Shown here piece by piece: positions 37-27,305 of a DNA stretch of 27,305 nt. This DNA comes from Candidatus Odinarchaeia archaeon (GTDB lineage: Archaea; Asgardarchaeota; Odinarchaeia; Odinarchaeales; Odinarchaeaceae), in the NCBI GenBank assembly GCA_029856525.1, contig JAHQXC010000009.1, forward strand, positions 1-27,305, given 5' to 3'. The stretch's first letter is position 1; each line of letters opens with the position of its first letter. The translations under genes were made by a program, and so were the position numbers. The notes beneath the pieces are model-generated. The model was given only the letters and a program-made list of their open reading frames with translations, was not told the DNA's origin and did not search any database.

Positions 37-216
37 CTTTACCGTTGGAAAGCCCCCTCGAAAACTGTTGATTAAATGCGAAAAGATATTTATAGTTTCA
101 AAATCGTCAAAAAGGATACAGATGCTGGGCTGGCTGGTCCTGTGAGGCTCGCTGAGACGGCTCCTCTACTGTTAGAGATGACAGCAAGCTCCTTCCGATA
201 AGGAGGAGTAGTTCAC
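37..216 (+). mobile_element. Non-autonomous IS200/IS605 mini-element (PATE-like), copy 1; left-end hairpin degenerate
   Basis: Follows TTTAA (32-36). Begins ctttaccgttggaaagcccc, similar to ctttatcggcgtgaagtccc at 16068. Shares tatttatagtttcaaa(a)tcgtcaaaaaggata with 16118-16148. Ends in a right-end hairpin ctcc-ttcc-gata-agga-ggag followed by tagttcac, matching the ggagtagctcac end of the TnpB element at 27305. No ORF. Confidence 0.8.
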
Positions 217-352
217 GTTCTCTACGCGTGTAGATTACAGCTTATATTTTTAAGTATTCTCCGGAAGAGCGTGTAAGAGCTTAATTAGATTTTTTAAAAA
301 TAGTTTTAATATTATATATTTTTTATAATTTATTGTTGAATATTTTCAGCGA

Positions 353-757
353 GTGGTTAAATTGGTTGATGAAATAGAATTAACTTCAGAACAGCGGGAG
401 AGGCTTAATCGTCTAATCCGAGAGAAATGTGTGAATATGGATTTATCTTCATACCTGCTTTTACTTAAAAATATTAGAGATAAATTTAACAGTAACTGTG
501 TTAAGAATATTAATAATTTTTTGAAAGCTGTAAGTAATATTAACAGGTTGAAAATAATATTATTACTTTTTGAAAGAGATTTATGCGGGTGTGAAATTAA
601 TGTTCTACTAGGCTTATCCCAGCCGACCACCTCTCATCATCTGAAAATATTAGAGAAATCCGGTCTGATTTCTTCTAGAATAGAGTGGAAGTGGAAATAT
701 TACACGCTTTCAAATAATGGTAGGAGATTCTTGAAATTCTTGTTAGACATCTGTTAA
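353..757 (+). CDS. arsR: ArsR/SmtB family transcriptional repressor with N-terminal extension
   Basis: RLKIILLL...DLCGCEI...LSQPTTSHHLKILEKSGLI winged HTH with a CxC metal site (ELCVCD-like); adjacent to acr3. GTG start. Confidence 0.88.
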   Translation: MVKLVDEIELTSEQRERLNRLIREKCVNMDLSSYLLLLKNIRDKFNSNCVKNINNFLKAVSNINRLKIILLLFERDLCGCEINVLLGLSQPTTSHHLKILEKSGLISSRIEWKWKYYTLSNNGRRFLKFLLDIC

Positions 758-786
758 CCGGTGTTTTGATTCTTATAAAATTCTTC

Positions 787-1821
787 CTATACTTGTATCT
801 TCTCCTCTCCGCTTCTTCTTCTAAGACTGATTTTAACTAAGGCTAGCATTACAGGTATCTCTATTAGAGGACCTATCACAGTTGAAACTGCAACTAGAGG
901 TGTGGAAGCGAAAGCTGTTATCGCTATAGCTATCGCTAATTCGAAATTTCTGCCTGTACAGTGGAATCCTATAGTTGTTGAATCACAGTAATTGTATCCT
1001 ATTCGCTTTGCTAGATAATACGCTGAGTTATATAACAGGAATATGAAGAGAATTAGAGGCGGAACCATGAATAATATCAGCTGAGGGTTATCTAATATCA
1101 CATAACCTTGAAGTGAAAACATCACAACCAGAGTGAATAGAAGAGACAGGAGTTGAAGACTTCCAAATTGTGGGATCAATTTATTAGTGAACCATACTGC
1201 GCCTTTACGTTTTAAAACAATTTTACGCGTTAAAGCACCGGCTAAAAGAGGCAATCCGAGATATAGGAGTATGCTCTCCCCTAAAGATAAAATGTTAACA
1301 GAAACATATGTTCCCACTAATAAGGCGATATATAGGGGGGTTGTTATAATCTGGATTATGGAATTCCACGCCATTAAAACTATACCTAGAGGTCCGTTGC
1401 CTTGAGCTAAATCAGTCCAGACCAGAACCATAGCTATACACGGGGCTACTCCTAAAAGTATCAGCCCGGTCCATAGGGCGTTAGCTGTAACCGTGTTTAA
1501 TAAGCCTAAGCCGGGAAAAATTAGGTTGAAGAATATGAAGCCGATAAAGTAAACTAGAAAAGGGTTAACTGCATAATTTAAAAATGCGACTAAGCCGACT
1601 TCTCTCCTGCTTTTTAAAGCTTTTTTTAAATCGTTTAAATCTATTTTAACCATAGCCGGATAGATCATGAAGAATAATCCTATCGGTATACCGTACTGTA
1701 GGTATATGTTAAGCCATGGTGCTGTCTTGCCGAGGACTAATCCTATTATAATACCTACGGCTATCCAGAGGCTTAGCAGTCTATCAATTATACTGAGGCC
1801 GCCGACTTTGCATGTGCTCAT
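787..1821 (-). CDS. acr3: ACR3 family arsenite efflux transporter
   Basis: PIGLFFMIYPAMVKID, GVAPCIAMVLVW (catalytic Cys), GRNFELAIAIA and GPLIEIPVM motifs; about 10 hydrophobic segments. Confidence 0.93.
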   Translation of the reverse strand: MSTCKVGGLSIIDRLLSLWIAVGIIIGLVLGKTAPWLNIYLQYGIPIGLFFMIYPAMVKIDLNDLKKALKSRREVGLVAFLNYAVNPFLVYFIGFIFFNLIFPGLGLLNTVTANALWTGLILLGVAPCIAMVLVWTDLAQGNGPLGIVLMAWNSIIQIITTPLYIALLVGTYVSVNILSLGESILLYLGLPLLAGALTRKIVLKRKGAVWFTNKLIPQFGSLQLLSLLFTLVVMFSLQGYVILDNPQLILFMVPPLILFIFLLYNSAYYLAKRIGYNYCDSTTIGFHCTGRNFELAIAIAITAFASTPLVAVSTVIGPLIEIPVMLALVKISLRRRSGEEKIQV

Positions 1822-1846
1822 ATTGATCCAGTTTTGTTAAAGAAGT

Positions 1847-1872
1847 ATCATATTTAAATTTTTCTATATGAT
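1847..1872. promoter_or_regulatory. Inverted repeat straddling the acr3 TATA box; candidate ArsR operator
   Basis: atcatat-N12-atatgat overlapping TTTAAATA on the minus strand (1858-1851), upstream of the acr3 start. Confidence 0.4.
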
Positions 1873-1917
1873 TCACTAAATTTAAGAAGGCTATGATTTC
1901 TAGTTTCTTGATCGAAA

Positions 1918-2559
1918 ATGCAGATTGAAAAATTATTAAACTCGTTAGCGGAGAATTTAACCCCTGAGCTTATAAAATTCATCACACCGCCTGAAGGCGC
2001 TGTTAAGACGCCTACAACCATATATAGAGGTGTTCTTTTAATCGAACCTGCTTTAACAAAAACAGCGTTGAAATTTCAAGCAGACGAGGAGTTTAAAAAA
2101 CATATATCCACTAATTTAGTTTTAGGTTACACTCAAGCTGATGCAACAGATCAAACTTTAATTCTCCGTAGACTTGTAGGCTTCTTATGTTTCCCCAGTC
2201 CTTTAGAAAGCTATGCTCGTAGAAAAACTTTAGATGAGTTGAATCAAGTGAAATCGGATTGGATTCTTGGCTTAAACGCTCAAGCAAATCATAAAATATT
2301 CTTTTATCTTAACTTCACAATCCCTAGGGTTAAAGCTATTTATAGAGCTGAATTACCGTTAAACTATACTCCGGGAGATAACACCACTTACACTTCTAAA
2401 AGATTTATCGAATCGTTTAAACACTTCCTCCAGTATTTTAAAACGCTCTCAGAGACACCTGGCTTAGATTGGGTTAAATTAACTCAGACGAGTGTAGGCT
2501 ACCTTGTTGTTTTAACTTCGAAAGCAGGAGAGGTGTCCGAACAGGTTTTTGAATTATAA
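1918..2559 (+). CDS. Hypothetical protein (213 aa)
   Basis: Long ATG-initiated ORF filling the gap between acr3 and nfo; no motif recognised; stop overlaps the nfo stop (ttataa). Confidence 0.65.
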   Translation: MQIEKLLNSLAENLTPELIKFITPPEGAVKTPTTIYRGVLLIEPALTKTALKFQADEEFKKHISTNLVLGYTQADATDQTLILRRLVGFLCFPSPLESYARRKTLDELNQVKSDWILGLNAQANHKIFFYLNFTIPRVKAIYRAELPLNYTPGDNTTYTSKRFIESFKHFLQYFKTLSETPGLDWVKLTQTSVGYLVVLTSKAGEVSEQVFEL

Positions 2560-3429
2560 CTCTGAGATAATCTTCTTAACCACTCTCATATTATCTAAGT
2601 CGCTTCTCCGCTCGTCTACAGGTGTCTCCATTATTAAGGGTCGCTCTCCTAAGCAGCTTTTAAGGAAGTTTTTAAATCCGTCAACGCCTATCGAACCTAA
2701 ACCTATATGCTCATGTCTATCAATATGGGATCCTAATCCCCCAACCGAATCGTTTAAATGAATTAAATAGACTTTTTCAACACCTATGTTTTCATCTATT
2801 TCTTCAACAGTTTCATTCACGCCGCTGACAGTTTTAATATCATAGCCTGCAGCCCAGCCGTGACATGTATCAAAGCAAAACCCGATGTCACCGCTATTCC
2901 TAACACCGTCGATTATATCCTTGATGTGCTCGAATCTTGAGCCTATACTATTAGGCGACCCGGCTGTATTCTCTAATAGAATTTTAACCCTCCCCTTACA
3001 TAGGCTGCTCGCCAGGTTAAGCGCGTCTACGATTCTTCTAACACCGTTACGATAACCTTCCCCTAGATGTGAACCTAAATGAACTACTGTGAACGGTATG
3101 CGCAGTCTTATACATCTTGAAACCTCGTTTAAAAGTGTTTCAACAGACCTACTGTACACGTCTATTTTAGGTGAAGCGAGATTCGGTAGATAAGGCATAT
3201 GCGAGAAGACTATTTTGAAACCTTTTTCAATTCTCTTCTCAATGAATCTTTCAACCTCTAAATCGTTTAGGATTCTAGGCCTCCAACCGCGGGGGTTTGT
3301 AGTGAAGATTTGAAATGCAGTGCAACCTAATCTATAAGCTCTCTCAACCGATAAATCTATTGAACCTTGAATTGAAACATGAAAGCCGATTAAAGACCCT
3401 TTATAAGCGTTCTGAATATTCATATTCAA
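2554..3429 (-). CDS. nfo: Endonuclease IV (AP endonuclease 2)
   Basis: HMPYLPNLAS, VVHLGSHLG, LLENTAG, FCFDTCH, HLNDS and DRHEHIGLG zinc-ligand motifs. Confidence 0.95.
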   Translation of the reverse strand: MNMNIQNAYKGSLIGFHVSIQGSIDLSVERAYRLGCTAFQIFTTNPRGWRPRILNDLEVERFIEKRIEKGFKIVFSHMPYLPNLASPKIDVYSRSVETLLNEVSRCIRLRIPFTVVHLGSHLGEGYRNGVRRIVDALNLASSLCKGRVKILLENTAGSPNSIGSRFEHIKDIIDGVRNSGDIGFCFDTCHGWAAGYDIKTVSGVNETVEEIDENIGVEKVYLIHLNDSVGGLGSHIDRHEHIGLGSIGVDGFKNFLKSCLGERPLIMETPVDERRSDLDNMRVVKKIISEL

Positions 3430-3504
3430 TCTAAAACCACCGGTAGTATCGCGCTCTATTGAGATGATAACTTAACTTAAAGCTTAATTTAAAATATTAT
3501 TTAA

Positions 3505-3717
3505 CCTCATAGGCGGGAAACCTCTTTCGATAGGGAGGGTGAGAGCTGATAATCTTATAAAAGAGATAGTTACATTATAATAAATAAGGATGCGAGGTTC
3601 GACGGGTCTAAGCTGCCTGCTTAGGGTGGGGCGTCACTTCACATCTCTGCGAACCGATAATTGGTGGGGCCTGCTCAAGGAGGCATAAACCACTGTGAAA
3701 GCTAGGAGTGGTTTTAC
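3505..3717 (+). mobile_element. Divergent IS200/IS605 mini-element, copy 3 (left end + promoter + structured RNA + right-end-like tail)
   Basis: TTTAA (3500-3504), then cctcataggcgggaaacctc, aligning with the left end at 16068. Hairpin cctc-tttc-gata-ggga-ggg; TTATAAAA at 3555-3562; GC-rich scaffold ending ggagtggttttac (compare ggggtagtttac at 16233-16244). Confidence 0.55.
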
Positions 3718-3721
3718 ATCC
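3588..3721 (+). ncRNA. Structured non-coding RNA (~134 nt), possibly HgcC/sotRNA/omegaRNA-like
   Basis: GC-rich island behind a TATA box. Hand-found helices: ggatg/catcc, ggttcg/cgaacc, ctaagc/gcttag, gtgggg/cttcac, gcct/aggc, aaaccact/agtggttt (with a GAAA loop). Confidence 0.65.
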
Positions 3722-3740
3722 AAAAGTTTATTAAACAAGT

Positions 3741-3760
3741 CGTATTAAACGTTTAATACG
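3741..3760. promoter_or_regulatory. Perfect 20-bp palindrome between the Sm TATA box and RBS
   Basis: cgtattaaac|gtttaatacg; TATA-like tttattaaa at 3728-3736; RBS ggagg at 3774-3778. Confidence 0.5.
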
Positions 3761-3786
3761 GTTTAAATTTTTTGGAGGATTGTGTT

Positions 3787-4047
3787 TTGGAAAGGCAGCC
3801 GCTTAAACTTCTCTCGAAAGCGCTTAACAACCTAGTACTAGTCAAGTTGAAAAATAAGAAGGAATATGTTGGTCGTCTAACAGAAATGGATGTTTACATG
3901 AACATTGTCTTAGCTGAAGCTGAAGAAATAGAGGATGATAAACCTATAGCAAGATACGGTGAAATATTCATACGAGGAAATAATATTCTTTATATTAAAC
4001 CTGATGTTACATTAGACTGGTTGAAACGTAGAACATCTCAGAGTTGA
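3787..4047 (+). CDS. Sm-like archaeal protein (SmAP/Lsm)
   Basis: Sm1 motif VLVKLKNKKEYVGRLTEMDVYMNIVL and Sm2 motif IFIRGNNILYI. TTG at 3787 preferred over 3772 because ggagg lies 8 nt upstream. Confidence 0.95.
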   Translation: MERQPLKLLSKALNNLVLVKLKNKKEYVGRLTEMDVYMNIVLAEAEEIEDDKPIARYGEIFIRGNNILYIKPDVTLDWLKRRTSQS

Positions 4048-6092
4048 GAATTAAACTGAGCTGTTTTACTGCTCCTATACTCGTTGATTATCTCTACAAG
4101 TTTTTCAACGGTGAGATTCGCCTTCCTTCTGCGAATATCCTCTAGAAATCTATTGTATACTTTATTGAATTTCTCGTTGTCAACAGCGTAAAATTCACTG
4201 TATTTAGTTAAGTCAACAGCCTCTGCAGGTATAACGGGTATCTCAGCTGCTATAAGCTTCTCCATTGCTAGATGTGACATATCATTTCTTGTAATTACGG
4301 CTTTAACCCCTCTCTCTATAAGTATTTCCGCTGTCCCTGAACCACCGCCTGTTGCATCCTCTAAAAATATGATATCGTTTTTCAATATACCGTATTGCTG
4401 ATCTAGTTCATTTAAAGATTCTTTAGAGAAGGAGCGCGCTATTTTAACAGGTTTAACTTTACCTTGAGCTTCAAGTGTTTTAATACTCTTCAAATTATAT
4501 ATCTCGCTTTGAAGCGTCGATATAGTATTTTTAAGCCTGTTAACCTGTTCTCTTAACTTAAGGATCTCCCCTTCTTTTATCTTATAAACTCTCTCACGTC
4601 TCAGCTTCAACGCTTCTTCGCTTAACATTGTTTTGAAGCGTATCTCTAACTCTTTTATTTTAGCCTTAAGCTTATTATTCTCATCTTTCAATTGTTCATT
4701 GAATAATGTGAGGTTTGAAATCTCTCTTTTAAGTTCTTTAATAATAGAACTTTCTTCAGATACCGTTTTAGGTTGGACTGGTTTTTCAACGCTAACCCGC
4801 TCCGACTTTATCTTAGGTGAAAGATCGCTGATAGCCTGGGAAATAGGTTTCTCATGGATTATAACCTCCGCTTTAACATCGTTAGCAGGTATAAAGAACG
4901 GTGTCCTAGAGAGTTTCGCTTCGATTTTATTGAAAACAGGCTTATAATACTGGTATGCTTTAATAGCTGCAGCTAAAGCGTCCCTTTTATGCGAGTTAGT
5001 TATTTTCACACCCCCCTCTTTAATGAAATTATATACTAGCTCCTGCTTCTCAGAGATGCTCATAATTCTTCTAGGTGAAAAAATTTTCGAATCAGTTGCG
5101 TTAGCTAGTTTAACTATAAACTCAGGGATATGTGGAGTGTCACAGGCGTAAATAAGAGGTAAACCGTAGCTTCTAATATAATTAAGGATTTCACTTTTAG
5201 AAAACATTTTAGAACTTTTTAAATCTAGAATATTTCCATCTAAATCAATAATCGCTAATCCTGTCGTGATCCCTGGATCGACGCCTATAATAAGCCTCCT
5301 ATCAGAGCTGTAAACTCTCACTTCCCCGGATAATGGAATATAGGAGAGGGTTTTCCGTTTAATCGGTTTAATGGTAACTTTTATGTCAGGGCCTTTTATC
5401 TGAGGTATAATCTTTTTTAAATCACTTTGAGAAGCGGTTACAATAAATCGGCTGCTATCAAATCCGAAATCAGATTCCTTCGCAATAAGCTCATATTCAA
5501 ACCCAGATTCTTTAAGCTTGCTTTCAATCTCTCTTGTCGTGTTGAGAATGAAACTGTGAAGTCTCCTCCTTAACCTGGCTTGGCTGGAACCACCGGGCCC
5601 AAGGTTACGGCTTCTCGAAACAATTATCATTGTTTCATCTTCAAAGGCTTTAATTTCGAACCCTATGTTTCTGGAAGCTAAAATAGCGAGTGTTTTAGCG
5701 TTCTCCATCGGGTTAAGATGTTTTTTAACGTCTAATCCCTGTTCGCTGGCTATAACATTCACCGGCTTCATTAAATATCCTGGGGCTCCAGTTACTTGAA
5801 CAAGTCTAATTCTATCAGGTAGCTTTAAAAGAAATTTATATACGTCTTTACCGGTGGGTATGATTTCAAAAATATTATCTACGGCTAAAATATCAGCGTT
5901 ATATTTTCTCGCATAATATATTATGTCAGAGAGAGACACCTTATCTTTTACTTCTCTAAACGTATTGCTCTGTAACACCGCCATAGCATATTTAGGGCGA
6001 CTACTACCTTGAACTGAGAAACCGGGTAAAATATCTATACCTATAATAACACTACTGCTCGTAGTATTATTATTTTCATTGTTTGGCGCCAA
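4038..6092 (-). CDS. DUF460/COG2433-type protein: RNase H (RuvC/YqgF-like) fold plus long coiled coil
   Basis: IIGIDILPG at the N-terminus; IIGVDPGITTGLAIIDLDG and H.RDALAAA nuclease-fold motifs; heptad-rich coiled coil; C-terminal LEDATGGGSGTAE.L domain. Confidence 0.85.
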   Translation of the reverse strand: MAPNNENNNTTSSSVIIGIDILPGFSVQGSSRPKYAMAVLQSNTFREVKDKVSLSDIIYYARKYNADILAVDNIFEIIPTGKDVYKFLLKLPDRIRLVQVTGAPGYLMKPVNVIASEQGLDVKKHLNPMENAKTLAILASRNIGFEIKAFEDETMIIVSRSRNLGPGGSSQARLRRRLHSFILNTTREIESKLKESGFEYELIAKESDFGFDSSRFIVTASQSDLKKIIPQIKGPDIKVTIKPIKRKTLSYIPLSGEVRVYSSDRRLIIGVDPGITTGLAIIDLDGNILDLKSSKMFSKSEILNYIRSYGLPLIYACDTPHIPEFIVKLANATDSKIFSPRRIMSISEKQELVYNFIKEGGVKITNSHKRDALAAAIKAYQYYKPVFNKIEAKLSRTPFFIPANDVKAEVIIHEKPISQAISDLSPKIKSERVSVEKPVQPKTVSEESSIIKELKREISNLTLFNEQLKDENNKLKAKIKELEIRFKTMLSEEALKLRRERVYKIKEGEILKLREQVNRLKNTISTLQSEIYNLKSIKTLEAQGKVKPVKIARSFSKESLNELDQQYGILKNDIIFLEDATGGGSGTAEILIERGVKAVITRNDMSHLAMEKLIAAEIPVIPAEAVDLTKYSEFYAVDNEKFNKVYNRFLEDIRRRKANLTVEKLVEIINEYRSSKTAQFNSQL

Positions 6093-6204
6093 ACCGATCT
6101 TACCGTGAATTTTTAAAAAATATAAGATAGAGAACCAGAAATTTACCGCATATTATTATCGATAACTATACTAAAATATTAAATTTATTATTGTTTAATA
6201 GACT

Positions 6205-6546
6205 TCATTCACCTCTATATGTTTTAGAGTAGTCGAACCATTGGATAATCGGGTAGAGTTTAGTTCGAAACTGGACGCCGAAACTTGTTAACGCGTAGAC
6301 TGCTAAAGGCGGTTTATCCCCCATTATCTTTCTTTCAATTAAACCTGCATGTAGAAGTTTTTTTAAAGTTTCAGATAAAGCTCTAGAAGTTATACGCCCC
6401 CCTCTGCTTAGAAGCTTCTGTAAAGCGTTGAAATTAAGTTTACCGTAGTTTGCTAAAAGCTCTATCACCGCAAACGTCCATTTTGTGCAGATATTTTTGA
6501 AAGGACAGTAGTGTTCTATTTCAACGTCATCGTGTTTCTTCGACAT
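6205..6546 (-). CDS. HxlR/MarR-type winged-helix regulator with N-terminal cysteines
   Basis: CPF...KWTFAVIELL...F..LQ...IT.RALSETLKKL...GLIERK...P...YALT..G pattern typical of HxlR (DUF24); divergent from the nox-hydrogenase operon. Confidence 0.85.
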   Translation of the reverse strand: MSKKHDDVEIEHYCPFKNICTKWTFAVIELLANYGKLNFNALQKLLSRGGRITSRALSETLKKLLHAGLIERKIMGDKPPLAVYALTSFGVQFRTKLYPIIQWFDYSKTYRGE

Positions 6547-6653
6547 AGCCGATATAATTTAGTATACCATATATATAAAATTATACCATCATATTTATAT
6601 CCGCCATTATAATAGGCTGAAAACGCTTATAAAATTTTTTAAAGGTGTCGCTT

Positions 6654-8012
6654 ATGAGGATTATAATAGTAGGCTTCAACGCAGCTGGTTTAAGCGCTGC
6701 TATAAACGCGCGTAAAACAAATCTGGAAGCTGAGATAGTAGTCTACGAGAAAGAGAAATACCTCCCATACTCTAGATGTGGGATACCTTTTGTCATAAGC
6801 GGGGATGTTAAAAGCTTCCAAGACTTAATAGAGTATCCTAAAGAGTTCTATGAAAAAAATAATATTGAAGTTCACCTTAACAGCGAGGTTCTCTCCATAG
6901 ATCCGGCTGCTAAAAAGATTCACGGGGTGAGAGAGGGGGTTCCCTTTACAGATCGATATGATAGATTAATACTAGCATTAGGAGGCTCGCCGAGAATACC
7001 CCCCATTAAAGGCGTGGATAAGGAAAACGTTTTTTATGTTAGAACTCTCACAGACGGGGAGCGCATATTAAAAGCGGCGAAAACATTTGAGAAGTGTGCT
7101 ATAATAGGAGGGGGGATGGTCGGTCTTGAAATGGCTGACGCCTTATCTAAGATAGGTGTTAAAGTAACTATTATAGATCGGAAGACTCAGATTCTACCCA
7201 ATCTGCTAGATGAAGATATGACTAAGCGCATACTCCCGGAGTTCAGTAAACGCGGTATACGGCTTATACTTAACGGGCGCTGCTCAGAGATAATAGGAGA
7301 TGGAAGAGTTCAAGCAGTTAAAGTGAACGATGAAGTTATACCCGTAGACTTTGTGGTTATATCAACAGCTGTTGATCCTAACGTTTTACTTGCTGTGAAA
7401 GCAGGTATCGAATTAGGTGAATTAGGGGCTATCAAAGTTAACATGAGAATGGAGACAAGTATCAGAGACATATACGCTTGCGGTGATTGCGTGGAGCTGC
7501 CGGATCTTATAACAGGCAGGTCAAGTTGCTTCCAAGTTAGAACTGGAGCTGATTCAATGGGCGCCGTGGCGGGTGTTAACGCTGCAGGCGGCTACTCTGT
7601 TCTCCCAGCTATATTAATAGTCGGTATGCTCCAATTATTCAACCTTCAAATCGCGCATGTAGGTTACACTGAGAGGCAGGCTAGGCAACGCGGAATTATC
7701 CCTATAGTTTCAATAGTGGAGGGTAAAACTAAAGCAGACTATTACCCTGGGGCTAAATGGATACAGGTGAAGCTTATATTTGAATTAGAGTCTACAACAC
7801 TGATAGGCGCTCAACTAGTCGGAGAGGAAGGTGTAGCGATGAGAGCTATATTTTTATCAGCCGCTATGACGAATAAGATGACAGCTTCAGAGTTAGCGAA
7901 GCTTCATATAGGTTACACTCCGCCTTTAAACAATCATATTGAACCTATATGCAGGGCAGCTGAAGCCGCCTTCGATAATATAAAAATCTGTTTATTTAAA
8001 GTACCAGAGTGA
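6654..8012 (+). CDS. FAD-dependent NAD(P)H oxidase / CoA-disulfide reductase family flavoprotein
   Basis: IIIVGFNAAG (FAD), YSRCGIP (redox Cys), IIGGGMVGLEMA (NAD(P)H), IYACGDC and a dimerisation domain. ATG 6654 chosen for the aggtg RBS. Confidence 0.9.
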   Translation: MRIIIVGFNAAGLSAAINARKTNLEAEIVVYEKEKYLPYSRCGIPFVISGDVKSFQDLIEYPKEFYEKNNIEVHLNSEVLSIDPAAKKIHGVREGVPFTDRYDRLILALGGSPRIPPIKGVDKENVFYVRTLTDGERILKAAKTFEKCAIIGGGMVGLEMADALSKIGVKVTIIDRKTQILPNLLDEDMTKRILPEFSKRGIRLILNGRCSEIIGDGRVQAVKVNDEVIPVDFVVISTAVDPNVLLAVKAGIELGELGAIKVNMRMETSIRDIYACGDCVELPDLITGRSSCFQVRTGADSMGAVAGVNAAGGYSVLPAILIVGMLQLFNLQIAHVGYTERQARQRGIIPIVSIVEGKTKADYYPGAKWIQVKLIFELESTTLIGAQLVGEEGVAMRAIFLSAAMTNKMTASELAKLHIGYTPPLNNHIEPICRAAEAAFDNIKICLFKVPE

Positions 8013-8030
8013 TTTCAGCTATCGGAGTAG

Positions 8031-9038
8031 ATGAAATTGTATAAGAAGCTTTTAAAAGATGATTTAGAGAACTTCATATTTATTCTCAAAAAATTCGGGG
8101 TTGTTCACGCTCCTGTTAGAGAAGCAGGGAGGGTATACGAGTTCACAGAGTTAACGGATTCTAAAATCCTGCAGTTAAATTATACTCGAACCATGATACC
8201 TCCTAAAAAATTCTTTTTAAAACCGAAAGAGCAGTTATATATTTTAAACAGGCGGGAAGGTTTTAAAGAGATCGTTGACGATTCGAAAATAGTTTTACTA
8301 GGAGTTCACGCATGCGATATAAACGCGTTAAACCTATTAGACCGTATTTACATCGATCAATTCCCGGATAGATATTATAAAACACGGCGTGAGAATACTA
8401 TTATAATCGGTGTTAGCTGTAAACCTGACGAGTATTGTTTCTGCACTTCTACAAATTCAAGTTACGCTCTCGAAGGCTTCGACTTATTCATGCATGAAAT
8501 TGACGACAGTTATATTATTCGCATAGGGTCTTTGAAAGGCTTTCAGATAGTATGTGAAAGTGAAAATCTACTCGCAGAAGCTTCTTCAAATGATATAAAA
8601 GAATTTAAGAGAGCTGAAGCTGAACGGCTTAAAGAATTCACGCTTCATCTTAACGTTAACGGTATCCAGGATATACTAGACGCTTCATATGATCACCCTG
8701 TCTGGCAGGAGAACGCGGATATATGCTTCGGCTGCGGTTCATGTAACCTCGTATGCCCTACATGTAGATGCTATGATACAGCTGACTTCTTAAATCTCGA
8801 TTTAAAAACCGGTGTCAGGGTTAGAAGATGGGATAGCTGTATGCTTAAACAGCATGGTTTAGTTGCCGGCGGCCTTAACTTCAGGCCTACGAGAGTTGAA
8901 CGCTTATACAATAGATTCAACTGTAAGATGAGCTTAAGCGAAGATTCTTTAAATTGCGTCGGTTGCGGAAGATGCACCGTGTACTGTCCAGCTGACATAA
9001 ACTTTGTTGAAGTATTAAAACAGGTGGGTGAGGATTGA
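8031..9038 (+). CDS. hydB: Group 3b [NiFe] hydrogenase (sulfhydrogenase) beta subunit, 4Fe-4S
   Basis: GVHACDI, C...C.C, CFGCGSCNLVCPTCRC and CVGCGRCTVYCPADI motifs. Confidence 0.93.
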   Translation: MKLYKKLLKDDLENFIFILKKFGVVHAPVREAGRVYEFTELTDSKILQLNYTRTMIPPKKFFLKPKEQLYILNRREGFKEIVDDSKIVLLGVHACDINALNLLDRIYIDQFPDRYYKTRRENTIIIGVSCKPDEYCFCTSTNSSYALEGFDLFMHEIDDSYIIRIGSLKGFQIVCESENLLAEASSNDIKEFKRAEAERLKEFTLHLNVNGIQDILDASYDHPVWQENADICFGCGSCNLVCPTCRCYDTADFLNLDLKTGVRVRRWDSCMLKQHGLVAGGLNFRPTRVERLYNRFNCKMSLSEDSLNCVGCGRCTVYCPADINFVEVLKQVGED

Positions 9039-9919
9039 CTGTTAAAAACCCTTTAACACCAATGGAAGCGGAGATCATTAGAGTAGAAGAGATGACTAGC
9101 ATAGAGAAACTATTCTATTTAAAATTAACAGACCCACAGATAATCGGGGAATTCCACTATAACCCCGGGCAATTCTTAGAAGTAAGTGTTCCAGGCGTCG
9201 GAGAGGCCCCGATCTCTATATGCGATGCTCAAAGAGAGCCTGGCCAGCTTCAATTATGTATAAGAAAGGTCGGCCGGGTTACAAACGCTATTCACAGGCT
9301 TAAAGAAGGCGATCGATTATGGATAAGAGGACCCTACGGAAACGGGTTTCCGATGAAGCTTATGGAGAATCATAATCTACTATTAATAGCAGGCGGATTA
9401 GGTATAGCACCGCTGAGAAGCGTGCTTCAACACGCTCTTCTATATCGAACTAACTATGGGTTAATCACAGTCATGTACGGTGTAAGATGCTATTCGATGA
9501 TGCTTTTCAGAGAAGAGTTCATTAGGCTTTTCCGCGAAGGCGATAAATTAAACGTTAAATTCCTATTAGCTTACGAGGATGAAAGCGACACGAAATGTTA
9601 TCAACTAGCATGCGAGCGAAGTGATCGATGTATGCGCGGACTTGTCACAAGATTAATCGAAGCGGCTACTATAACACCTGATAACACCTACGCGGTGATA
9701 TGCGGACCCCCTGTCATGTACAAGTTTGTGGTTAGAGAGTTAACTCAGAGAGGCTTCACACCAACCCAAATATATATGACTATGGAGCGTCGGATGAAAT
9801 GCGGCGTCGGTAAATGCGGTCACTGTATAACAGGATCAAGTAACTCAATAAAATATGTGTGCAAAGACGGCCCGGTATTCACATACTGGGATGCTTTAAA
9901 AACAAAAGGGTTGATGTAA
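9035..9919 (+). CDS. hydG: Group 3b hydrogenase gamma subunit (FAD/NAD(P), 2Fe-2S)
   Basis: PGQF...GEAPISI, RGPYGNGF, AGGLGIAPLRS, ICGPPVM and MKCGVGKCGHC...VCKDGPVF; TTG start overlapping the hydB stop. Confidence 0.93.
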   Translation: MTVKNPLTPMEAEIIRVEEMTSIEKLFYLKLTDPQIIGEFHYNPGQFLEVSVPGVGEAPISICDAQREPGQLQLCIRKVGRVTNAIHRLKEGDRLWIRGPYGNGFPMKLMENHNLLLIAGGLGIAPLRSVLQHALLYRTNYGLITVMYGVRCYSMMLFREEFIRLFREGDKLNVKFLLAYEDESDTKCYQLACERSDRCMRGLVTRLIEAATITPDNTYAVICGPPVMYKFVVRELTQRGFTPTQIYMTMERRMKCGVGKCGHCITGSSNSIKYVCKDGPVFTYWDALKTKGLM

Positions 9920-9920
9920 A

Positions 9921-10727
9921 ATGAAGGAACCCGCGAGCGAGAATAAACCGAAAATAGGCGTATTCAGCCTCACAGGCTGCGCTGGAGACCAGTTGATGAT
10001 ACTAAACTTAGAGGATACATTAATAGAGTTACTGTCGAAATTCGAGATAAAATCATTTCAAGAAGCGAGCAGCTACAGTGAAAATATAAGACTTGATATA
10101 GCCTTCGTGGAAGGCTCGGTGAGCACGGAACATGATCTAGAAAAATTAAAAGAGATAAGAGATAAATCCTCGCTGCTTGTCGCTATAGGAGACTGCGCTG
10201 TCAACGGGTGCGTTCAAGCTATGAGGAACAGTCAAACAAGCATAGCTGAGAGAATGTTAGATGTTTACGGAGTTGAAGATAACATTTACAGAGCTCTTGA
10301 ACCTAAAGGTATAGGAGAATATGTGAGAGTCGACTTCGAAATCCCCGGTTGCCCTGTTGAGAAGGAAGAAGTGTTTAACACACTTATATCTCTTCTAAAC
10401 GGGGATCCCCCACTGATCCCAGATTACCCTGTATGCGTAGAATGCAAGCTTAACGGTTACCCTTGTGTAATCATAGAGGAAGGTAAACCGTGTCTAGGAC
10501 CAATTATAACAGCAGGATGCGATGCCCGCTGTCCTAGTCTAGGCTTAGACTGCGTAGGCTGCCGTGGACCTATAAAAGGGGAGACGAACGCTAAAGCCGA
10601 GCTTGAAGCGCTTCGAAAAAGAGGCTACCCTGATAAATATATAATTAACAGATTACGCTTCTTCGCCGGAAACTTCCCGGATATTCGAATTCTAGGTGAG
10701 AGAAAAAATTCTAAGGGGGAGAAATAA
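9921..10727 (+). CDS. hydD: Group 3b hydrogenase delta (small) subunit
   Basis: VEGSV, GDCAVNG, PGCP and CLGPIITAGCDARCP...CVGCRG; first motif is CAGD instead of CxGC. Confidence 0.93.
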   Translation: MKEPASENKPKIGVFSLTGCAGDQLMILNLEDTLIELLSKFEIKSFQEASSYSENIRLDIAFVEGSVSTEHDLEKLKEIRDKSSLLVAIGDCAVNGCVQAMRNSQTSIAERMLDVYGVEDNIYRALEPKGIGEYVRVDFEIPGCPVEKEEVFNTLISLLNGDPPLIPDYPVCVECKLNGYPCVIIEEGKPCLGPIITAGCDARCPSLGLDCVGCRGPIKGETNAKAELEALRKRGYPDKYIINRLRFFAGNFPDIRILGERKNSKGEK

Positions 10728-12013
10728 TGGTTAAAACACTTAAAATAGATGAGCTTACGAGAGTGGAGGGCCACGGCGGGATAACAGTAATAATAGAAGG
10801 GGAGAAGGTTAAAGACGTTAAAATGAATATTTTCGAAGGTCCAAGATTCTTTGAATCAATCATTAAAACAGTCTACTATGATAAAGTCCCTGATATAATG
10901 AGACGGATATGCGCTATATGCACAGCCTCACATAGTCTTGCTAGTATAAGAGCAATAGAGCATGCCTTCCACATACAGGTGAGCGATCAAACACAAATTT
11001 TAAGAGACCTATTAATACACGGCGAGATAATTGAAAGCCACGCTTTACACGTCTTCATGCTCGCTTTACCGGATTATTTAGGGTATCCTGACGCATTAAA
11101 AATGTCTTCAGAGCATTTTGAAATAGTTAAAGCAGCTTTAGAATTAAAAAAAGCAGGTAATATGATTCATAATATTATAAGCGGTAGAGAAATCCATGGA
11201 ATGAATGAGAGAGTCGGCGGTTTTTCTAAAATTCCAAACGAGAGAAAACTAGAAATTATAAAAGAGGAAATGTTAAACGTTAAGAAAACAGCTGAACTAT
11301 CCGTGGAGTTACTAGCTCGAAAAGAGCCGCCGCTTAATATTAACTCTAAAAACATATTTATGGCTTTAAACCCTGGTGGAAAATACGGTTTCATAGGGGA
11401 TGAAATCCTCATCTCAGACGGTGGCAAGCATCATATAAACGATTATCTTAACATAATTCATGAGCGGACCGTTAACTATTCTACAGCTAAAATATCACTT
11501 TATAAGAATCAGCCTTTCACGGTTGGGGCGTTAGCTAGAATAATTTTAAACAAGAGTAAACTCGAAGGATCGGCTAAAAACATGTTTAAAACATATCAAG
11601 CGTTAATACGGGAAGGAAACCCGCTTACCAATAATATAGCTCAAGCCATCGAACTTGTTCACAGCGTTGAAAGAGCGGTGGTTTTAGTCGATGAATTATT
11701 AAGCCGCGGTGTTAGAGATGAACGTTTACCCGTAGTTAACGTGAAGGAAGCGCGGGGTGTCGGAGCTGTTGAAGCGCCTCGCGGAATCCTATACCATGAC
11801 TACACGTTTGATAAATACGGTTGCATAGTTAAATGCAATGTAATCACTCCGACAGCTCAGAATATAGCTAGCATTGAAAGAGATTATCGTGAAGCAGCCT
11901 CCTCTTTAATAAACGAGGATGAGGATAAAATCAAATTTAACCTTGAATTAATCTCTAGAGCCTACGATCCATGTATCTCATGCGCCACGCATGTTATAAG
12001 GTTAAAAAATTAG
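10727..12013 (+). CDS. hydA: Group 3b [NiFe] hydrogenase alpha (large) subunit
   Basis: TRVEGHG, L1 RICAICTASH, EAPRGIL.H and L2 DPCISCATH with a short C-terminal extension (VIRLKN). Confidence 0.96.
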   Translation: MVKTLKIDELTRVEGHGGITVIIEGEKVKDVKMNIFEGPRFFESIIKTVYYDKVPDIMRRICAICTASHSLASIRAIEHAFHIQVSDQTQILRDLLIHGEIIESHALHVFMLALPDYLGYPDALKMSSEHFEIVKAALELKKAGNMIHNIISGREIHGMNERVGGFSKIPNERKLEIIKEEMLNVKKTAELSVELLARKEPPLNINSKNIFMALNPGGKYGFIGDEILISDGGKHHINDYLNIIHERTVNYSTAKISLYKNQPFTVGALARIILNKSKLEGSAKNMFKTYQALIREGNPLTNNIAQAIELVHSVERAVVLVDELLSRGVRDERLPVVNVKEARGVGAVEAPRGILYHDYTFDKYGCIVKCNVITPTAQNIASIERDYREAASSLINEDEDKIKFNLELISRAYDPCISCATHVIRLKN

Positions 12014-12060
12014 TATAAACCCTTTTTTAACCCTACTATACCCTATTAAAAGTCTTTGCA

Positions 12061-12087
12061 ATTTAGTCAACACTAAATTATATATAG
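12061..12087 (+). promoter_or_regulatory. Inverted repeat abutting the TATA box of the 54-aa ORF
   Basis: atttagt-caac-actaaat (12061-12078) immediately followed by tatatatag. Confidence 0.4.
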
Positions 12088-12124
12088 GAGTTTAAATCCC
12101 GTTTTTATAAGCGGAGGTTAAACT

Positions 12125-12289
12125 ATGGTCGCCTATAAGGTTTACGTTAAAAAAATCGGTAGCACGGGTACAATGGATAAGCTTTGGGATGTAGTCACCG
12201 TTGAAGCTGAATCCGAGGAAGAGTTGAATAATAAGATCGACGAATTGTTTAAGAGAGGTTGGAAGGTTTTTAGAATAAATAAAATATAG
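12125..12289 (+). CDS. Small protein (54 aa) missing from the ORF track
   Basis: ggaggt RBS at 12113-12118, ATG 12125, TAG 12287-12289. MVAYKVYVKKIGSTGTMDKLWDVVTVEAESEEELNNKIDELFKRGWKVFRINKI has plausible beta-beta-alpha-beta patterning. Confidence 0.75.
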   Translation: MVAYKVYVKKIGSTGTMDKLWDVVTVEAESEEELNNKIDELFKRGWKVFRINKI

Positions 12290-12364
12290 TTTTAAACTGT
12301 TTTTAGCTATTCATTTAAATATTATATTCGCTTAATTGATAACGCTGTTTGCCAGGTGTCTGCT

Positions 12365-13315
12365 ATGAGTAAATTAAATTCTATTCCAGGCGAGGTTGCT
12401 GCAACCTCGGAAATAGAGATAATCGCCCCTAATCCTAGTGAATATATTCCTGTAAACGTCCCCCCTTTTGTAGACACAAATAACCAGACGGATATAATTA
12501 AACTCCACCTTGAAGCTGAACCCCCTCAACCTCTTCTATTCATCGGCTATAAAGGAACAGGTAAAACATTAGCTTTCGCAAGCGTAGCATACCAGTTAAA
12601 AATACCTATAATTCAAGCCGACTTAAGCGAGAATACTAAACGCGGTGATCTGATAGGCAGATTCATATTAAGAGGCTCAGACGTAGTGTACCAGCTCGGC
12701 ATACTCCCCTCCGCGATATTAATAGCGAACAGTGTCGGCAAAGCTATCCTCGTATTAGAGGAGCTTAACGCGTTAACTCCTCAAATGCAAAAAGTGTTAA
12801 ACCAGATTTTAGACTGGCGTGGCCAAGTTCACGCTCCTGAAATAGGTAAAATATTTAGACTGAATAAAGGATGCAAACTTTTAATAGGGGCTACAAGCAA
12901 CCCGTCAAATTACGGCGGCGTCTTCGAGATAAACGAGGATCTTAGAAGTCGTTTCGCCACACTATGGTTCGATTATCCTAAAAAAGAGGATGAGTTGAAA
13001 ATCCTACACGCTTACGGGTCAACAGATGACAATCTCAACGAGCTTTTAATAAGATTAGCTGTAGAAACAAGGAAAGCCGTTGATAGAAACGAAATAGAAT
13101 ACGCTCTTTCACCTAGAGATCTTGTAAGATTCACGCAGATAATGAAAATTTATACCTCAAAGTTTACAGAGGAGGATGCGTTAAAGAAGACTCTGGAAAT
13201 AGTTGTTCTCGGAAAATATGAGGATATTGATGAACGCCAGTTGATAGCGCGGAGAATTGAATCAATTTTCGGCTTAAAAATAGGTGAAGACTTAAATGAC
13301 TCAGAGAATCGCTGA
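12365..13315 (+). CDS. MoxR-family AAA+ ATPase (CbbQ/NirQ/NorQ-like)
   Basis: Walker A GYKGTGKT, DLIGRF, Walker B LVLEELN, ATSNP...YGG, LRSRF arginine finger and SPRDL. ATG 12365 follows aggtg. Confidence 0.9.
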   Translation: MSKLNSIPGEVAATSEIEIIAPNPSEYIPVNVPPFVDTNNQTDIIKLHLEAEPPQPLLFIGYKGTGKTLAFASVAYQLKIPIIQADLSENTKRGDLIGRFILRGSDVVYQLGILPSAILIANSVGKAILVLEELNALTPQMQKVLNQILDWRGQVHAPEIGKIFRLNKGCKLLIGATSNPSNYGGVFEINEDLRSRFATLWFDYPKKEDELKILHAYGSTDDNLNELLIRLAVETRKAVDRNEIEYALSPRDLVRFTQIMKIYTSKFTEEDALKKTLEIVVLGKYEDIDERQLIARRIESIFGLKIGEDLNDSENR

Positions 13316-14951
13316 ATATATACCCTTCAATAAGTCGATATTTTATAAGACGGTTTCAATTTTTTCAGCGATTGAAAGAAAAGAGTTAACCCTAAAATTC
13401 ATCTCTGAACCAATCCCCCCTCACACCAACATGAATATTATAATTTTACCTATTGTTAAAACCCCTCCATTAATATTAAACGAAGACGACCTCTATACTG
13501 CTTTAGAATTTGAACTAGCACATTTCGTTTTCGGAACAGATTACAGTGAAGCTGAACGATGGTCTAAGAAGTACGGTGTTTTAGCTGAAGCTGCTTTAAC
13601 AGTCTGGAAGATACTAGAAGATCAGAGAGTGGAAAGTCTTTGGGGTAAACTATATCAAGGGAGTATGTTCCGTTTTAAAATACGCCGGGAGAGGCTTATA
13701 ACAAGAGAGGCCACGAATTTAATAGAAGTATTAACAGCCGCCAGAGCGAAGAGACTCGACTTAGTCCCTGAAGCACTGCTAGAGCATGCTAATTATTTTC
13801 AAATGGCGTTACGCGAAGTAGAGTTATGCGGGCCTGAAGCTTCCTTTCTAATAGCGGAGCGTATAATGAATGTTATAAAAAATTCCTCTAAACTCGAAGA
13901 TAAGATAAAAAGCGGCGAGGTTAAAGAACAGATCATAGAGTATACTTTGAAAGGTGTGGATGAAGCAGCCGATGAATTGAAAGATGAGAGTTTAGATGAT
14001 ATAAGAGAGGCGCTTCAAAAAGCTAGGGAAGAAGGATTAGACCGTATAAATCAGATCAGCCAGGCGTTGAGTAAAATAGAGAAAGTTTCTAGGAAGAACA
14101 GGTTTATAGAAGATAAATGCCAGGATACACCGGCCAGTTTAGATCCTATTAGAGAGGATATTGTAACAGCTAAAAAATTCATTCAAATATTTAAAAACAT
14201 GATTTTTAAACGTATATACGACCCGGATAATGAAGGCCTTGAACTGGATATAGACGAGTACGTTCAATGGAGGTTAAACCCGCATCAAGACAGGCACCTA
14301 TTCTTAGATGATGAGAAGGAAAACCAGTTCACTTGTACAGTTCTATTAGATCTAAGCCTAAGCATGAACCCAAGGTATGGATCATACTCAGACTCTTATA
14401 CAGCTATCGGTTTAACCACTAAACTAGGTTTAGCTAAAAGAGCTGCTACAGTTCTAGCCTTAGCTTTTAAAACACTGAGAAACGTAAACTTCAAAGTATA
14501 CGGGTTCAGCGGTAACACTAATGATCTCATTGTCTTAGTCCGAGAGGCGGAGGATGTTTTAGACATTCAAAAACTGGATTGTACACCAGGATGGGCTTTA
14601 AGCCCACTGCATTTAGCTATTAATGTAATAGTTGAAAATCTTAGAAATGTGAAGGGGAGGCGTCTATTATTCGTTATAACCGATGGATTACCGGAGGCTA
14701 TGCTTTACGGTAAAGCGGTCGAACAGGAATGGTTGATTAAATGGACGAGAGAAGCTGTTAGAAACGCTATTGAAAAAGGAGTTCAAGTCTACACTATAAT
14801 GATCGACCCGGATATAGACGAGGAGACCATGCATACAATGTTCGGTTCATCTGAAAGATGGACGATTCTACGAGATAAAGATAAGCTTAGAGAGGTAATG
14901 TTAAAATACGTGGCTAAACATGTTGCGAAAATAATACAGAAATCCATGTAG
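13296..14951 (+). CDS. von Willebrand factor A domain protein (NorD/CbbO/CobT-like MoxR partner)
   Basis: G.ELDIDEY, MIDAS LLDLSLSM and ITDGLP; N-terminal FELAH...LEDQRVE segment; overlaps the AAA+ gene. Confidence 0.85.
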   Translation: MTQRIAEYIPFNKSIFYKTVSIFSAIERKELTLKFISEPIPPHTNMNIIILPIVKTPPLILNEDDLYTALEFELAHFVFGTDYSEAERWSKKYGVLAEAALTVWKILEDQRVESLWGKLYQGSMFRFKIRRERLITREATNLIEVLTAARAKRLDLVPEALLEHANYFQMALREVELCGPEASFLIAERIMNVIKNSSKLEDKIKSGEVKEQIIEYTLKGVDEAADELKDESLDDIREALQKAREEGLDRINQISQALSKIEKVSRKNRFIEDKCQDTPASLDPIREDIVTAKKFIQIFKNMIFKRIYDPDNEGLELDIDEYVQWRLNPHQDRHLFLDDEKENQFTCTVLLDLSLSMNPRYGSYSDSYTAIGLTTKLGLAKRAATVLALAFKTLRNVNFKVYGFSGNTNDLIVLVREAEDVLDIQKLDCTPGWALSPLHLAINVIVENLRNVKGRRLLFVITDGLPEAMLYGKAVEQEWLIKWTREAVRNAIEKGVQVYTIMIDPDIDEETMHTMFGSSERWTILRDKDKLREVMLKYVAKHVAKIIQKSM

Positions 14952-14957
14952 AGTATT

Positions 14958-15596
14958 TTAAACTTTAAAAGCTGAAGGGCAGAGTTTATTTAACACGCAG
15001 TTATTACAATCCGGTTTTCTCGCAGTGCAGATGCTACGCCCATGCGCTTGAAGAAGATGCGCGATAACACCCCAATCACTACGGGGAACCAATTTCATAA
15101 GATCCTGCTCTATTTTTTCAGGGTCATCGCTTTCACTTAAACCTAAACGTTTAGATAATCGCCTCACATGAGTGTCAACAGCGATTCCTTCAACGATACC
15201 ATAACCGTCAGTTAAAACGATATTAGCTGTTTTACGCGCTACACCCGGTAAACTTAGAAGATCCTCCATTCTCTTAGGAGTATCCCCGTTAAATTTATCT
15301 ACGATAAGCTGAGCAGCCTTCTTAATATTCCTAGCCTTATTCTTATAGAATCCTGTCGAATGAATAATCTCCTCTAACTCTGTAATATCAGCGCTCGCTA
15401 ACTCAGCTGGAGTAGGATATTTTTTAAAAAGCACTTCAGTCACCTTGTTAACCTGGTCGTCAGTGCATTGAGCGGAGAGAATAGTCGCTATAAGCAGTTG
15501 AAAAGGATTGTTAAATTTAAGTTTTATACGTGCGTTCGGATATTCAGTTTTAAGAGCATTCAATATTTCAGCGAATCTATCACGGTTAACCGTCAA
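14958..15596 (-). CDS. nth: Endonuclease III
   Basis: LLIATILSAQCTD, HhH LPGVARKTANIV, AVDTHV and the CTARKPDCNNCVLNKLC 4Fe-4S motif. Confidence 0.96.
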   Translation of the reverse strand: MTVNRDRFAEILNALKTEYPNARIKLKFNNPFQLLIATILSAQCTDDQVNKVTEVLFKKYPTPAELASADITELEEIIHSTGFYKNKARNIKKAAQLIVDKFNGDTPKRMEDLLSLPGVARKTANIVLTDGYGIVEGIAVDTHVRRLSKRLGLSESDDPEKIEQDLMKLVPRSDWGVIAHLLQAHGRSICTARKPDCNNCVLNKLCPSAFKV

Positions 15597-15642
15597 ATTA
15601 CACCACCGTAATAAATAAATTTCCCTGAGAATAATAAATCCT

Positions 15643-15900
15643 ATGCAATCTCATATAAATGAAGTTATTGAAGAATTTAATAAATACAGGGGGTCGGAAA
15701 TCCAAGCGGAGTTAATCTCCGCGGATAATAACATGATTACAATAAAATTTTCAGGCTCTTTTTGTTATACATGCGGTTTAATAGACTATTTCGAAGACTT
15801 CCAGATCCTCTTAGAAGATATTACTAAACTTAAATTTAAAATAGAAAGCTACCGACAGCTGGACGTCGACTCCTATATAGTGGATTATTCAGTGATTTAG
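15643..15900 (+). CDS. Small CxxC protein with NifU/Nfu C-terminal-like pattern
   Basis: I.F.GSFCYTCG resembles the Nfu V.L.GAC..C motif; 85 aa. Confidence 0.6.
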   Translation: MQSHINEVIEEFNKYRGSEIQAELISADNNMITIKFSGSFCYTCGLIDYFEDFQILLEDITKLKFKIESYRQLDVDSYIVDYSVI

Positions 15901-16067
15901 CTATAAATCATTAAAATCACAGGATGCGTTGAATCGTTAACTATAGTAAATTTCATAAAACCCTCCTAAGAAGTTTTTCGAATTTAACAGCAGAATATAA
16001 GGCTACCACAAGCCTCCGCCTATTCCCTCTTTAACATTATTGTAAGCTGATGCGAGGTCTCTTTTAA

Positions 16068-16244
16068 CTTTATCGGCGTGAAGTCCCTTGCGAAAGCTAA
16101 GGGATAAAAGCCGAAAGTATTTATAGTTTCAAATCGTCAAAAAGGATAGAGAAGCGGGCTGAGACGGGGCCTCTACCGGTCGAAACAGCAGCAAGCTTCA
16201 TCATTAAAGTAGGAAGCCCCATCCGATAGGGAGGGGTAGTTTAC
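16068..16244 (+). mobile_element. Non-autonomous IS200/IS605 mini-element (PATE-like), copy 2, with both ends
   Basis: TTTAA (16063-16067); left hairpin ccctt-gc-gaaa-gc-t-aaggg; BRE/TATA cgaaag-tatttatag; scaffold gagacggggcctctac...agcaagc...ggaagcccc-atcc-gata-ggga-gggg-tagtttac. No ORF. Confidence 0.85.
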
Positions 16245-16301
16245 TTAGACTATTAAGCTAACGGCTTAAAATATTCTCAGGTAAAACTTTTAAGGAGGAT
16301 A

Positions 16302-25944: not shown

Positions 25945-26062
25945 ATTCGCTTATAATCGATTATAAAGAAGGGTGCCCAGAAAACCCCTAACTTCAGTTA
26001 GGGGATGAATGGGCAGAAACTTAAATATCCATACGTGCTTAAAAAGTTTTAGGGATGTTCCC

Positions 26063-27289: not shown

Positions 27290-27305
27290 TCGAGGAGTAG
27301 CTCAC
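27203..27305 (+). ncRNA. omegaRNA/reRNA scaffold overlapping the tnpB 3' end
   Basis: gtgag (27216-27220) is complementary to the terminal ctcac (pseudoknot); right-end hairpin present; guide lies outside the window; 5' boundary uncertain. Confidence 0.7.

Follow-up and report, generated by a model that had tools for sequence, protein, structure and literature searches.

Protein-less IS200/IS605 mini-elements with candidate stand-alone omegaRNA genes in an Odinarchaeia genome

The closest described systems are the palindrome-associated transposable elements (PATEs) of Haloquadratum walsbyi (PMC3119063) and the PATE-like ISGst elements of Geobacillus stearothermophilus (10.1101/2023.03.14.532601), which lack open reading frames (ORFs) and terminal inverted repeats, carry subterminal palindromes, insert at a 4-5-nt motif without target duplication, end like tnpB elements and are presumed to be mobilised in trans by a Y1 TnpA transposase. 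Meers 2023 (10.1101/2023.03.14.532601) noted that PATEs 'often encode omegaRNAs', for which a TnpB has to be provided in trans. We observed the same features at three loci in a 27,305-nt stretch of DNA (the window), i.e. the whole of contig JAHQXC010000009.1 (C93) in the genome of a Candidatus Odinarchaeia archaeon (G000; 1.32 Mb, 127 contigs, 38% GC, 93% complete). These loci are probably non-autonomous, protein-less IS200/IS605 mini-elements of the PATE type with stand-alone omegaRNA-like genes, the RNA step being a prediction from sequence. They have the features by which PATEs were defined (PMC3119063), and supply of a Y1 TnpA in trans is plausible. Unlike the known PATEs, they reside in an uncultured thermophile-type archaeon, the BRE/TATA (B recognition element/TATA box) promoter of their parent directly abuts the start of the scaffold, and a cognate tnpB is absent from the assembly.

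Stand-alone mobilised omegaRNAs exist and function in trans (Altae-Tran 2021, as summarised in PMC10691335). According to that summary, those OMEGA (obligate mobile element-guided activity) loci, like the elements described here, are effector-less mobilised guide loci that occur beside effector loci in the same genome and take as guide the DNA just outside the right end; their trans function is experimental, whereas here it is inferred, and the transposon-associated motif (TAM) of the available TnpBs is mismatched. The IS200/IS605 elements of SisTnpB1 in Sulfolobus islandicus are, by their description, alike in being archaeal and in having 5'-TTTAA, the TAM of SisTnpB1, as left-end flank, but they encode TnpA and a TnpB with demonstrated nuclease activity, unlike the protein-less elements considered here (10.1101/2023.03.06.531077). 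Homing of TnpB to its own insertion site has also been demonstrated (10.1101/2023.03.14.532601). Since the idea of stand-alone mobilised omegaRNAs is already published, the present elements are a well-documented new example rather than a new system; their value is that of a boundary-resolved archaeal case of a stand-alone omegaRNA mini-transposon, with empty sites, parents, structure and a copy census.

Three mini-elements and their families

The three mini-elements lie on the forward strand between genes and have a common layout, i.e. a left-end hairpin, a BRE/TATA block, a scaffold of ~100-130 nt and a right-end hairpin, with T(C/T)AC terminating each. Element 1 (el1; 37-216), assigned by nhmmer family match and alignment to the long-form or el1 subtype of family A, directly follows a TTTAA target or TAM at 32-36; its left end with hairpin occupies ~37-85 and its BRE/TATA ~84-95 (TTTATA at 89-94), the predicted RNA start lies near GGATAC at 114, and the scaffold (114-216) closes with the right-end hairpin at 189-208 and the tail TAGTTCAC at 209-216. 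Element 2 (el2; 3505-3717), of sister family C, follows TTTAA at 3500-3504, as read in the sequence and in alignment with congeners, and has its left-end hairpin at ~3520-3540, a TATA-like TTATAAAA at 3555-3562, GGATG at 3588, a scaffold at 3588-3717 and a right-end hairpin at ~3687-3711 before the end TTTTAC(A), the right boundary being uncertain by 1 base (3717 or 3718). Element 3 (el3; 16068-16244), a short form of family A and its best member by nhmmer, follows TTTAA at 16063-16067, as read in the sequence and the family alignment; its left end and hairpin span 16068 to ~16110, BRE/TATA 16112-16127 (TTTATA at 16120-16125) and the scaffold 16144-16244, beginning with GGATAG at 16144 and ending with the right-end hairpin (16217-16236) and the tail TAGTTTAC (16237-16244). 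The right termini, ..ggagtagttcac (216), ..ggagtggttttac (3717) and ..ggggtagtttac (16244), resemble that of the tnpB element of the window, ..ggagtagctcac / ..GGAGTAGCTCAC at 27305, where the contig ends.

The original prediction, made on the window alone, had placed three elements at these coordinates, each directly 3' of TTTAA, with a TATA-like box, then aaGGAT and a GC-richer body, and with right ends like that of the tnpB element, all of which our comparisons bear out. It had also assigned a common promoter block of 31-32 nt to the first and second copies; this block is instead shared by el1 and el3 (87% identity over 60 nt).

Iterated nhmmer searches starting from 16068-16244 gave 30 matches genome-wide, 21 of them full-length and including 37-216, such that el1 and el3 belong to one ~180-nt repeat, family A. 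With a hidden Markov model restricted to the left end, 33 or more copies of that end are recognised in the 1.32 Mb, a number to be taken as a lower bound. When family A is aligned with its flanks, TTTAA precedes 19 of the 21 copies and similarity starts right after it; on the right side, similarity ceases right after TAGTTCAC, TCAC is the end in 17/21 and the downstream flanks all differ. The call for further copies with TTTAA and TCAC boundaries is answered by these counts. El2 has only its left ~110 nt in common with family A and belongs to a looser, more heterogeneous sister family with ~10 further diverged members in the genome. Across copies, element length is 154-230 nt, which leaves no room for a transposase gene. 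Hairpins lie close to both ends, ~17 nt in from the left end (CCCCCTGCGAAAGCTGGGGG type) and 8 nt in from the right (CCCCATCCGATAGGGAGGGG type); they are alike, and neither end is an inverted repeat of the other.

In another genome (locus L087 of G177, ~1990-2077 and downstream), a family-A-like element ends in ..TAGTTCAC and an IS605 with a tnpA begins right there with its left end; apparently one of the two took the right-end tail of the other as its target.

Three genomes of the same genus, including G001 and G002, have the orthologous loci and were used for comparison. In G001 the site of el2 is exactly empty (..TATTTAA|TCCAAAAG.. / ..TATTTAA|TCCAAAAGTTTATT..), the two flanks joining directly without any duplication, and for the family-A copy at C24:6331-6485 the empty site ..TTTTAA|aTATTCGA.. 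is present in both G001 and G002. Because these empty sites lie 3' of TTTAA and lack duplications, the elements are insertions with the IS200/IS605 signature. At the orthologous site of el3 the intergenic region of the congeners is too diverged for an empty site to be visible, and the sites of the C78 and C109 copies gave no clean junction there. In the three congeners, tnpA and family-A mini-elements are absent and tnpB is present as broken remnants only.

On contig C44, the genome under study has a single intact Y1 tnpA, in which both the HUH and the Tyr motif are present. Its own element lies at TTAC and its hairpins are somewhat different from those of the mini-elements; to judge from sequence, cross-mobilisation of the mini-elements by this TnpA is plausible.

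ORFs within the elements are short (at most ~41-42 aa) and vary in length and frame between copies, which, together with the subterminal hairpins and the insertion at TTTAA without duplication, agrees with the proposal that these are ORF-less IS200/IS605 mini-elements. We did consider a micro-peptide starting at the ATG within GGATAAAGATG, as many copies have a leaderless-type ATG after the TATA box and a few have frames of 26-42 aa. The frame, however, ranges from 3 to 42 codons between copies, deletions shift it and el3 has no such ATG; the reading is hardly credible and was dropped on account of this lack of conservation.

Every copy is intergenic, and their setting bears on whether their main effect is that of mobile promoters facing outward, or of 5'-leader modules, by which a downstream host gene is driven or modulated. 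The three window copies do face gene starts 55-137 nt downstream (an ArsR-family gene at 353, an Sm/LSM gene at 3772 and a TPR gene at 16302), as do ~12 of 22 copies genome-wide, but ~8 of the 22 face the 3' end of a convergent gene, such that no orientation rule emerges, and the congeners have the same genes without the insertions. As this explanation also leaves the conserved structured scaffold unaccounted for, we regard it as very improbable and retain the interpretation of the loci as mini-elements with omegaRNA-like genes.

Promoter and omegaRNA-like scaffold

Full-length tnpB parents of the mini-elements were found in other genomes of the phylum. At loci L008 and L009 a left end TTTAA|CTTTCTCGGCGGGAAG.., followed by a hairpin and GAAAGCCG, and a right end ..GGAAGCCCCATCC..GGGGTAGTTCAC / ..GCAGGAAGCCCCATCC..GGGGTAGTTCAC, both as in the mini-elements, flank a 49-aa DUF7557 ORF and a tnpB; the right-end hairpin and tail of mini-element type also occur on the tnpB loci L005, L006 and L048. 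The 49-aa ORF, ribbon-helix-helix-like, lies at L008:158-307, where it directly precedes tnpB and overlaps with it.

A TATA box that would drive these coding genes is located in L008 just past the left-end hairpin, ~30 nt 5' of the first ATG, and the BRE/TATA of the mini-elements is at the same place. Given this correspondence, what was proposed to be the mini-elements' own promoter is, by position and sequence, the left-end promoter of the parent, now abutting the right-end scaffold and presumably able to fire there. The claim of an own promoter therefore stands as one of a promoter-like BRE/TATA block kept ~25 nt before the scaffold, conserved and syntenic with the parents; in el3, the distance from TTTATA (16120-16125) to GGATAG (16144) is 24 nt. 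The segment from BRE/TATA to GGATA is the best conserved of the family, at 80-99% per column versus 60-70% for the hairpins. A positional TATA consensus drawn from crude gene starts of the genome gave no sharp peak.

To describe the scaffold, we built a covariance model, R1, from tnpB-linked right ends only, with no mini-element in it. The right ends of the window-TnpB type, from 14 genomes or homologues, yield a consensus fold of 33 pairs (compensatory changes at 18) that comprises a 5' hairpin, P2, P3 enclosing P4, P5 (the right-end hairpin) and the tail ..GCTCAC. Scanned over the genome, R1 strongly matched the right end of the window tnpB and its five derivative or duplicate copies; the next matches, a remnant on C118 aside, were el1 (20.9 bits), a copy on C32 (20.0) and el3 (17.3), then copies on C29, C51 and C16. 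The mini-element matches each end exactly at the right boundary, the spans being 97-216 for el1 and 16117-16244 for el3. In other genomes, R1 gives mini-elements 15-24 bits, on a par with the 14-19 bits of tnpB-linked right ends of the sister (L008) clade. Pairwise alignment of el1 with the right end of the window tnpB, moreover, covers the entire scaffold and scores 54, versus 20.5 +/- 4 for shuffles (z ~8). The remnant itself (C118:5608-5733, i.e. L073:209-334; 25.5 bits) is a decayed right end of window tnpB type with no tnpB adjoining.

Folded one at a time, mini-elements from five genomes and four right ends of tnpB elements all give one layout, i.e. a P2 hairpin, a long-range P3 (CCUGY/RCAGG, CCAGC/GCUGG or CUGCGA/UCGCAG) that encloses a variable P4 hairpin, then AAG, P5 and UAGUUCAC. 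RNAalifold on eight mini-elements from five genomes recovers P2, P3 and P5, with 6 of 18 pairs compensatory and changes in all three helices. The 19 same-genome copies, being recent and heterogeneous in length, gave 9 pairs only, with little covariation; covariation was consequently taken from the cross-genome sets. These results support homology of the scaffold to the right-end (omegaRNA) region of tnpB, as had been proposed from the window; for el2 such similarity was not detected in this genome.

Structured noncoding RNAs of the HgcC or sotRNA type derive from the 3' ends of IS1341 tnpB genes and overlap those ends in archaea. The likeness to them lies in the structured RNA at the tnpB 3' end; Rfam membership of the present elements is not supported, since no Rfam family, HgcC included, matches any of the three at the gathering score or at E up to 10, and the suggested comparison with RNA family models thus came out negative.

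The pathway that would best join these observations starts from a tnpB-only (IS1341-like) transposon that lost its coding core. The derivative would have kept its left end with the subterminal hairpin, cleaved and inserted 3' of TTTAA, the archaeal BRE/TATA promoter of the parental left end, the omegaRNA scaffold proximal to the right end (P2, P3 enclosing P4, and P5 as the right-end hairpin) and the T(C/T)AC end, and it would move by single-strand peel-and-paste, without target duplication, using a Y1 transposase supplied in trans. We infer that transcription starts ~25 nt 3' of the TATA box, at about GGAT, and that a scaffold RNA of ~100-130 nt runs on into the flank, which would serve as guide. 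With a compatible TnpB, this RNA could direct cleavage of the element-free allele (TTTAA plus flank), with the result that the mini-element is kept or re-copied. This would be homing, not defence and not a multi-target system.

Guides, available nucleases and the case for inert remnants

The would-be guides are at 217-236 for el1 (flank gttctctacgcgtgtaga..), 3718-3740 for el2 and 16245-16264 for el3 (ttagactattaagctaac..), those of el1 and el3 beginning at the family right-end boundary and being unique in the genome; the predicted starts at 217, 3718 and 16245 were thus correct. For each element, the sole perfect genome match of the 16-nt guide is its own flank, and a genome-wide search for second targets (16-mers, up to 2 mismatches) returned only chance AT-rich near-matches, none of them perfect. 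The uninterrupted el2 allele reads TTTAA + TCCAAAAGTTTATTAAACAA in G001 and G002, TTTAA being followed there by a 20-nt guide match. Unique guides and an empty allele composed of TTTAA and guide are, by analogy with known TnpBs, the pattern of self-site homing rather than that of the dispersed multi-guide system originally envisaged, which is not supported, as each guide perfectly matches its own flank only.

Two intact tnpB genes are present in the genome, one in the window and one on C44. The window tnpB (26009-27289, forward strand; Pfam Cas12f1-like_TNB) belongs to a full-length tnpB-only insertion sequence (IS) element of a related lineage (25966-27305), with its left end at ~25966 after TTAT and its omegaRNA or right-end region at 27170-27305, where it meets the contig end. 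The D-E-D triad, said beforehand to be intact, reads as AIDRG, VMENL and NRDLD, and the CxxC..CxxC motifs are intact as well. The C44 TnpB (C44:8617-9902) has Gly at the RuvC-II Glu position (..KIVVGNLKG..), as has the L008-type parental TnpB (..IIIGDLNVKG..). TnpB clades with a 'rearranged' catalytic site are predicted to be active (PMC10691335), and on its sequence the C44 protein matches this type.

Several findings weigh against the stand-alone omegaRNA reading, some of them concerning these nucleases. The window element, its three ~280-nt derivatives and its homologues elsewhere all follow TTAT or TTTAT, not TTTAA; the closest relatives of the C44 tnpA-tnpB IS605 start after TTAC(A), and the C44 right end is dissimilar; and no tnpB of the TTTAA (L008) type occurs in the assembly, itself 93% complete. 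Others concern the copies. Four of the 21 family-A copies carry mutations at the right terminus and some hairpins have decayed, the covariance model scores of mini-elements are low (7-21 bits) with several copies below significance, and neither tnpB right end of the genome is detectably similar to the el2 scaffold. In the commonest sub-family, i.e. the short form that includes el3, P2 and the 5' strand of P3 have been lost by a deletion between short direct repeats (GCUG..GAGAC), and therefore amplification did not need an intact scaffold; the RNA of this sub-family may be impaired. Variation among the copies of this one genome is mostly neutral decay and no proof of selection at the RNA level.

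A rival explanation is that of inert deletion remnants, i.e. PATEs propagated by TnpA alone in which promoter and scaffold are passengers left over from the deletion in the founder and any RNA is without a role. The deletion of P2 and half of P3 in the most abundant sub-family, the decayed termini and hairpins, the weak model scores and the lack of a cognate TTTAA-type tnpB in the assembly all favour this explanation, and PATEs of Haloquadratum, down to 52 bp and at strain-specific sites, have been suggested to be mobile (PMC3119063). Against it, no other part of the elements is as well conserved as the promoter block. Moreover, family A, family C and the derivatives of the window tnpB element, which are independent lineages, and mini-elements of at least four other genomes all keep at least ~100 nt of scaffold that shares the helix layout and far exceeds the needs of TnpA. 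On balance we hold inert remnants to be unlikely and favour elements that carry omegaRNA-like genes.

Which TnpB might serve them is a separate matter. The original prediction named the window TnpB as a partner loading the elements in trans. On scaffold similarity this is possible, especially for el1, but with the window TnpB lineage at TTAT/TTTAT, the C44 element at TTAC and no TTTAA-type parent in the assembly, TAM grounds do not support it. That more than 30 promoter-equipped TTTAA-type guide cassettes are served across lineages by the window TnpB, to whose right-end scaffold el1 bears a close resemblance, i.e. a natural case of cross-family omegaRNA sharing, is in our estimate improbable; were it true, there would be more than ten guide genes to each nuclease gene, which might mark a step towards guide repertoires resembling arrays. 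The residual interest of the elements is in the recurrent fusion of promoter and scaffold, a deletion joint that recurs in several lineages, in the apparent lack of a cognate nuclease and in possible cross-lineage guide use. As naturally occurring scaffolds of minimal size (~100 nt), they may be of use for a TnpB clade found across many thermophilic archaeal phyla, and they offer a natural experiment on whether a TnpB can accept the guide RNA and TAM of a sister lineage.

Related insertions in this and other genomes

The C44 element (C44:8006-9916; L044) is the only tnpA-tnpB IS605 of the genome. Its 5' neighbour consists of TTTAA|left end, a TATA box and a scaffold that runs to ..CCTTTAC, after which come the IS605 left end, tnpA, tnpB and the right end ..GTGGAAAATGTCAA. 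Since its closest IS605 homologues start after TTAC(A), the sequence arrangement is such that the C44 IS605 appears to be nested in an el2-like mini-element, and ~37 nt past its right end may be the rest of that mini-element. The possibility that the el2 promoter block is the promoter of the C44 tnpA was ruled out, as the left end of the IS605 homologues lies after TTAC(A) at the hairpin ..CGACAAG..ACGGTTTTAACCG...

The window tnpB element has itself given rise to ~280-nt internal-deletion derivatives (C125:1-278, C29:3820-4100 and C71:10583-10863), in which the left end, corresponding to 25966-26065, is joined to 27133-27305. Further left- and right-end pieces of this element are present at the contig ends of C77, C78 and C5; the window contig, too, stops precisely at the right end, the assembly thus being broken by this repeat.

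Homologues of the window TnpB with 58-81% identity occur in metagenome-assembled genomes labelled Terraquivivens, Methanodesulfokora, Culexmicrobium, Bathyarchaeota, Methanomethylicota, Baldr-/Odinarchaeota, Archaeoglobaceae and others. At loci L045-L065, TnpBs that are 73-81% identical are found in very distant archaeal groups, among them Caldarchaeales-type Terraquivivens, Korarchaeia, Bathyarchaeota, Methanomethylicota, Odin-/Baldrarchaeota, Hadarchaeota and Archaeoglobaceae. This distribution suggests that the window TnpB has spread recently by horizontal transfer among archaea of hot habitats.

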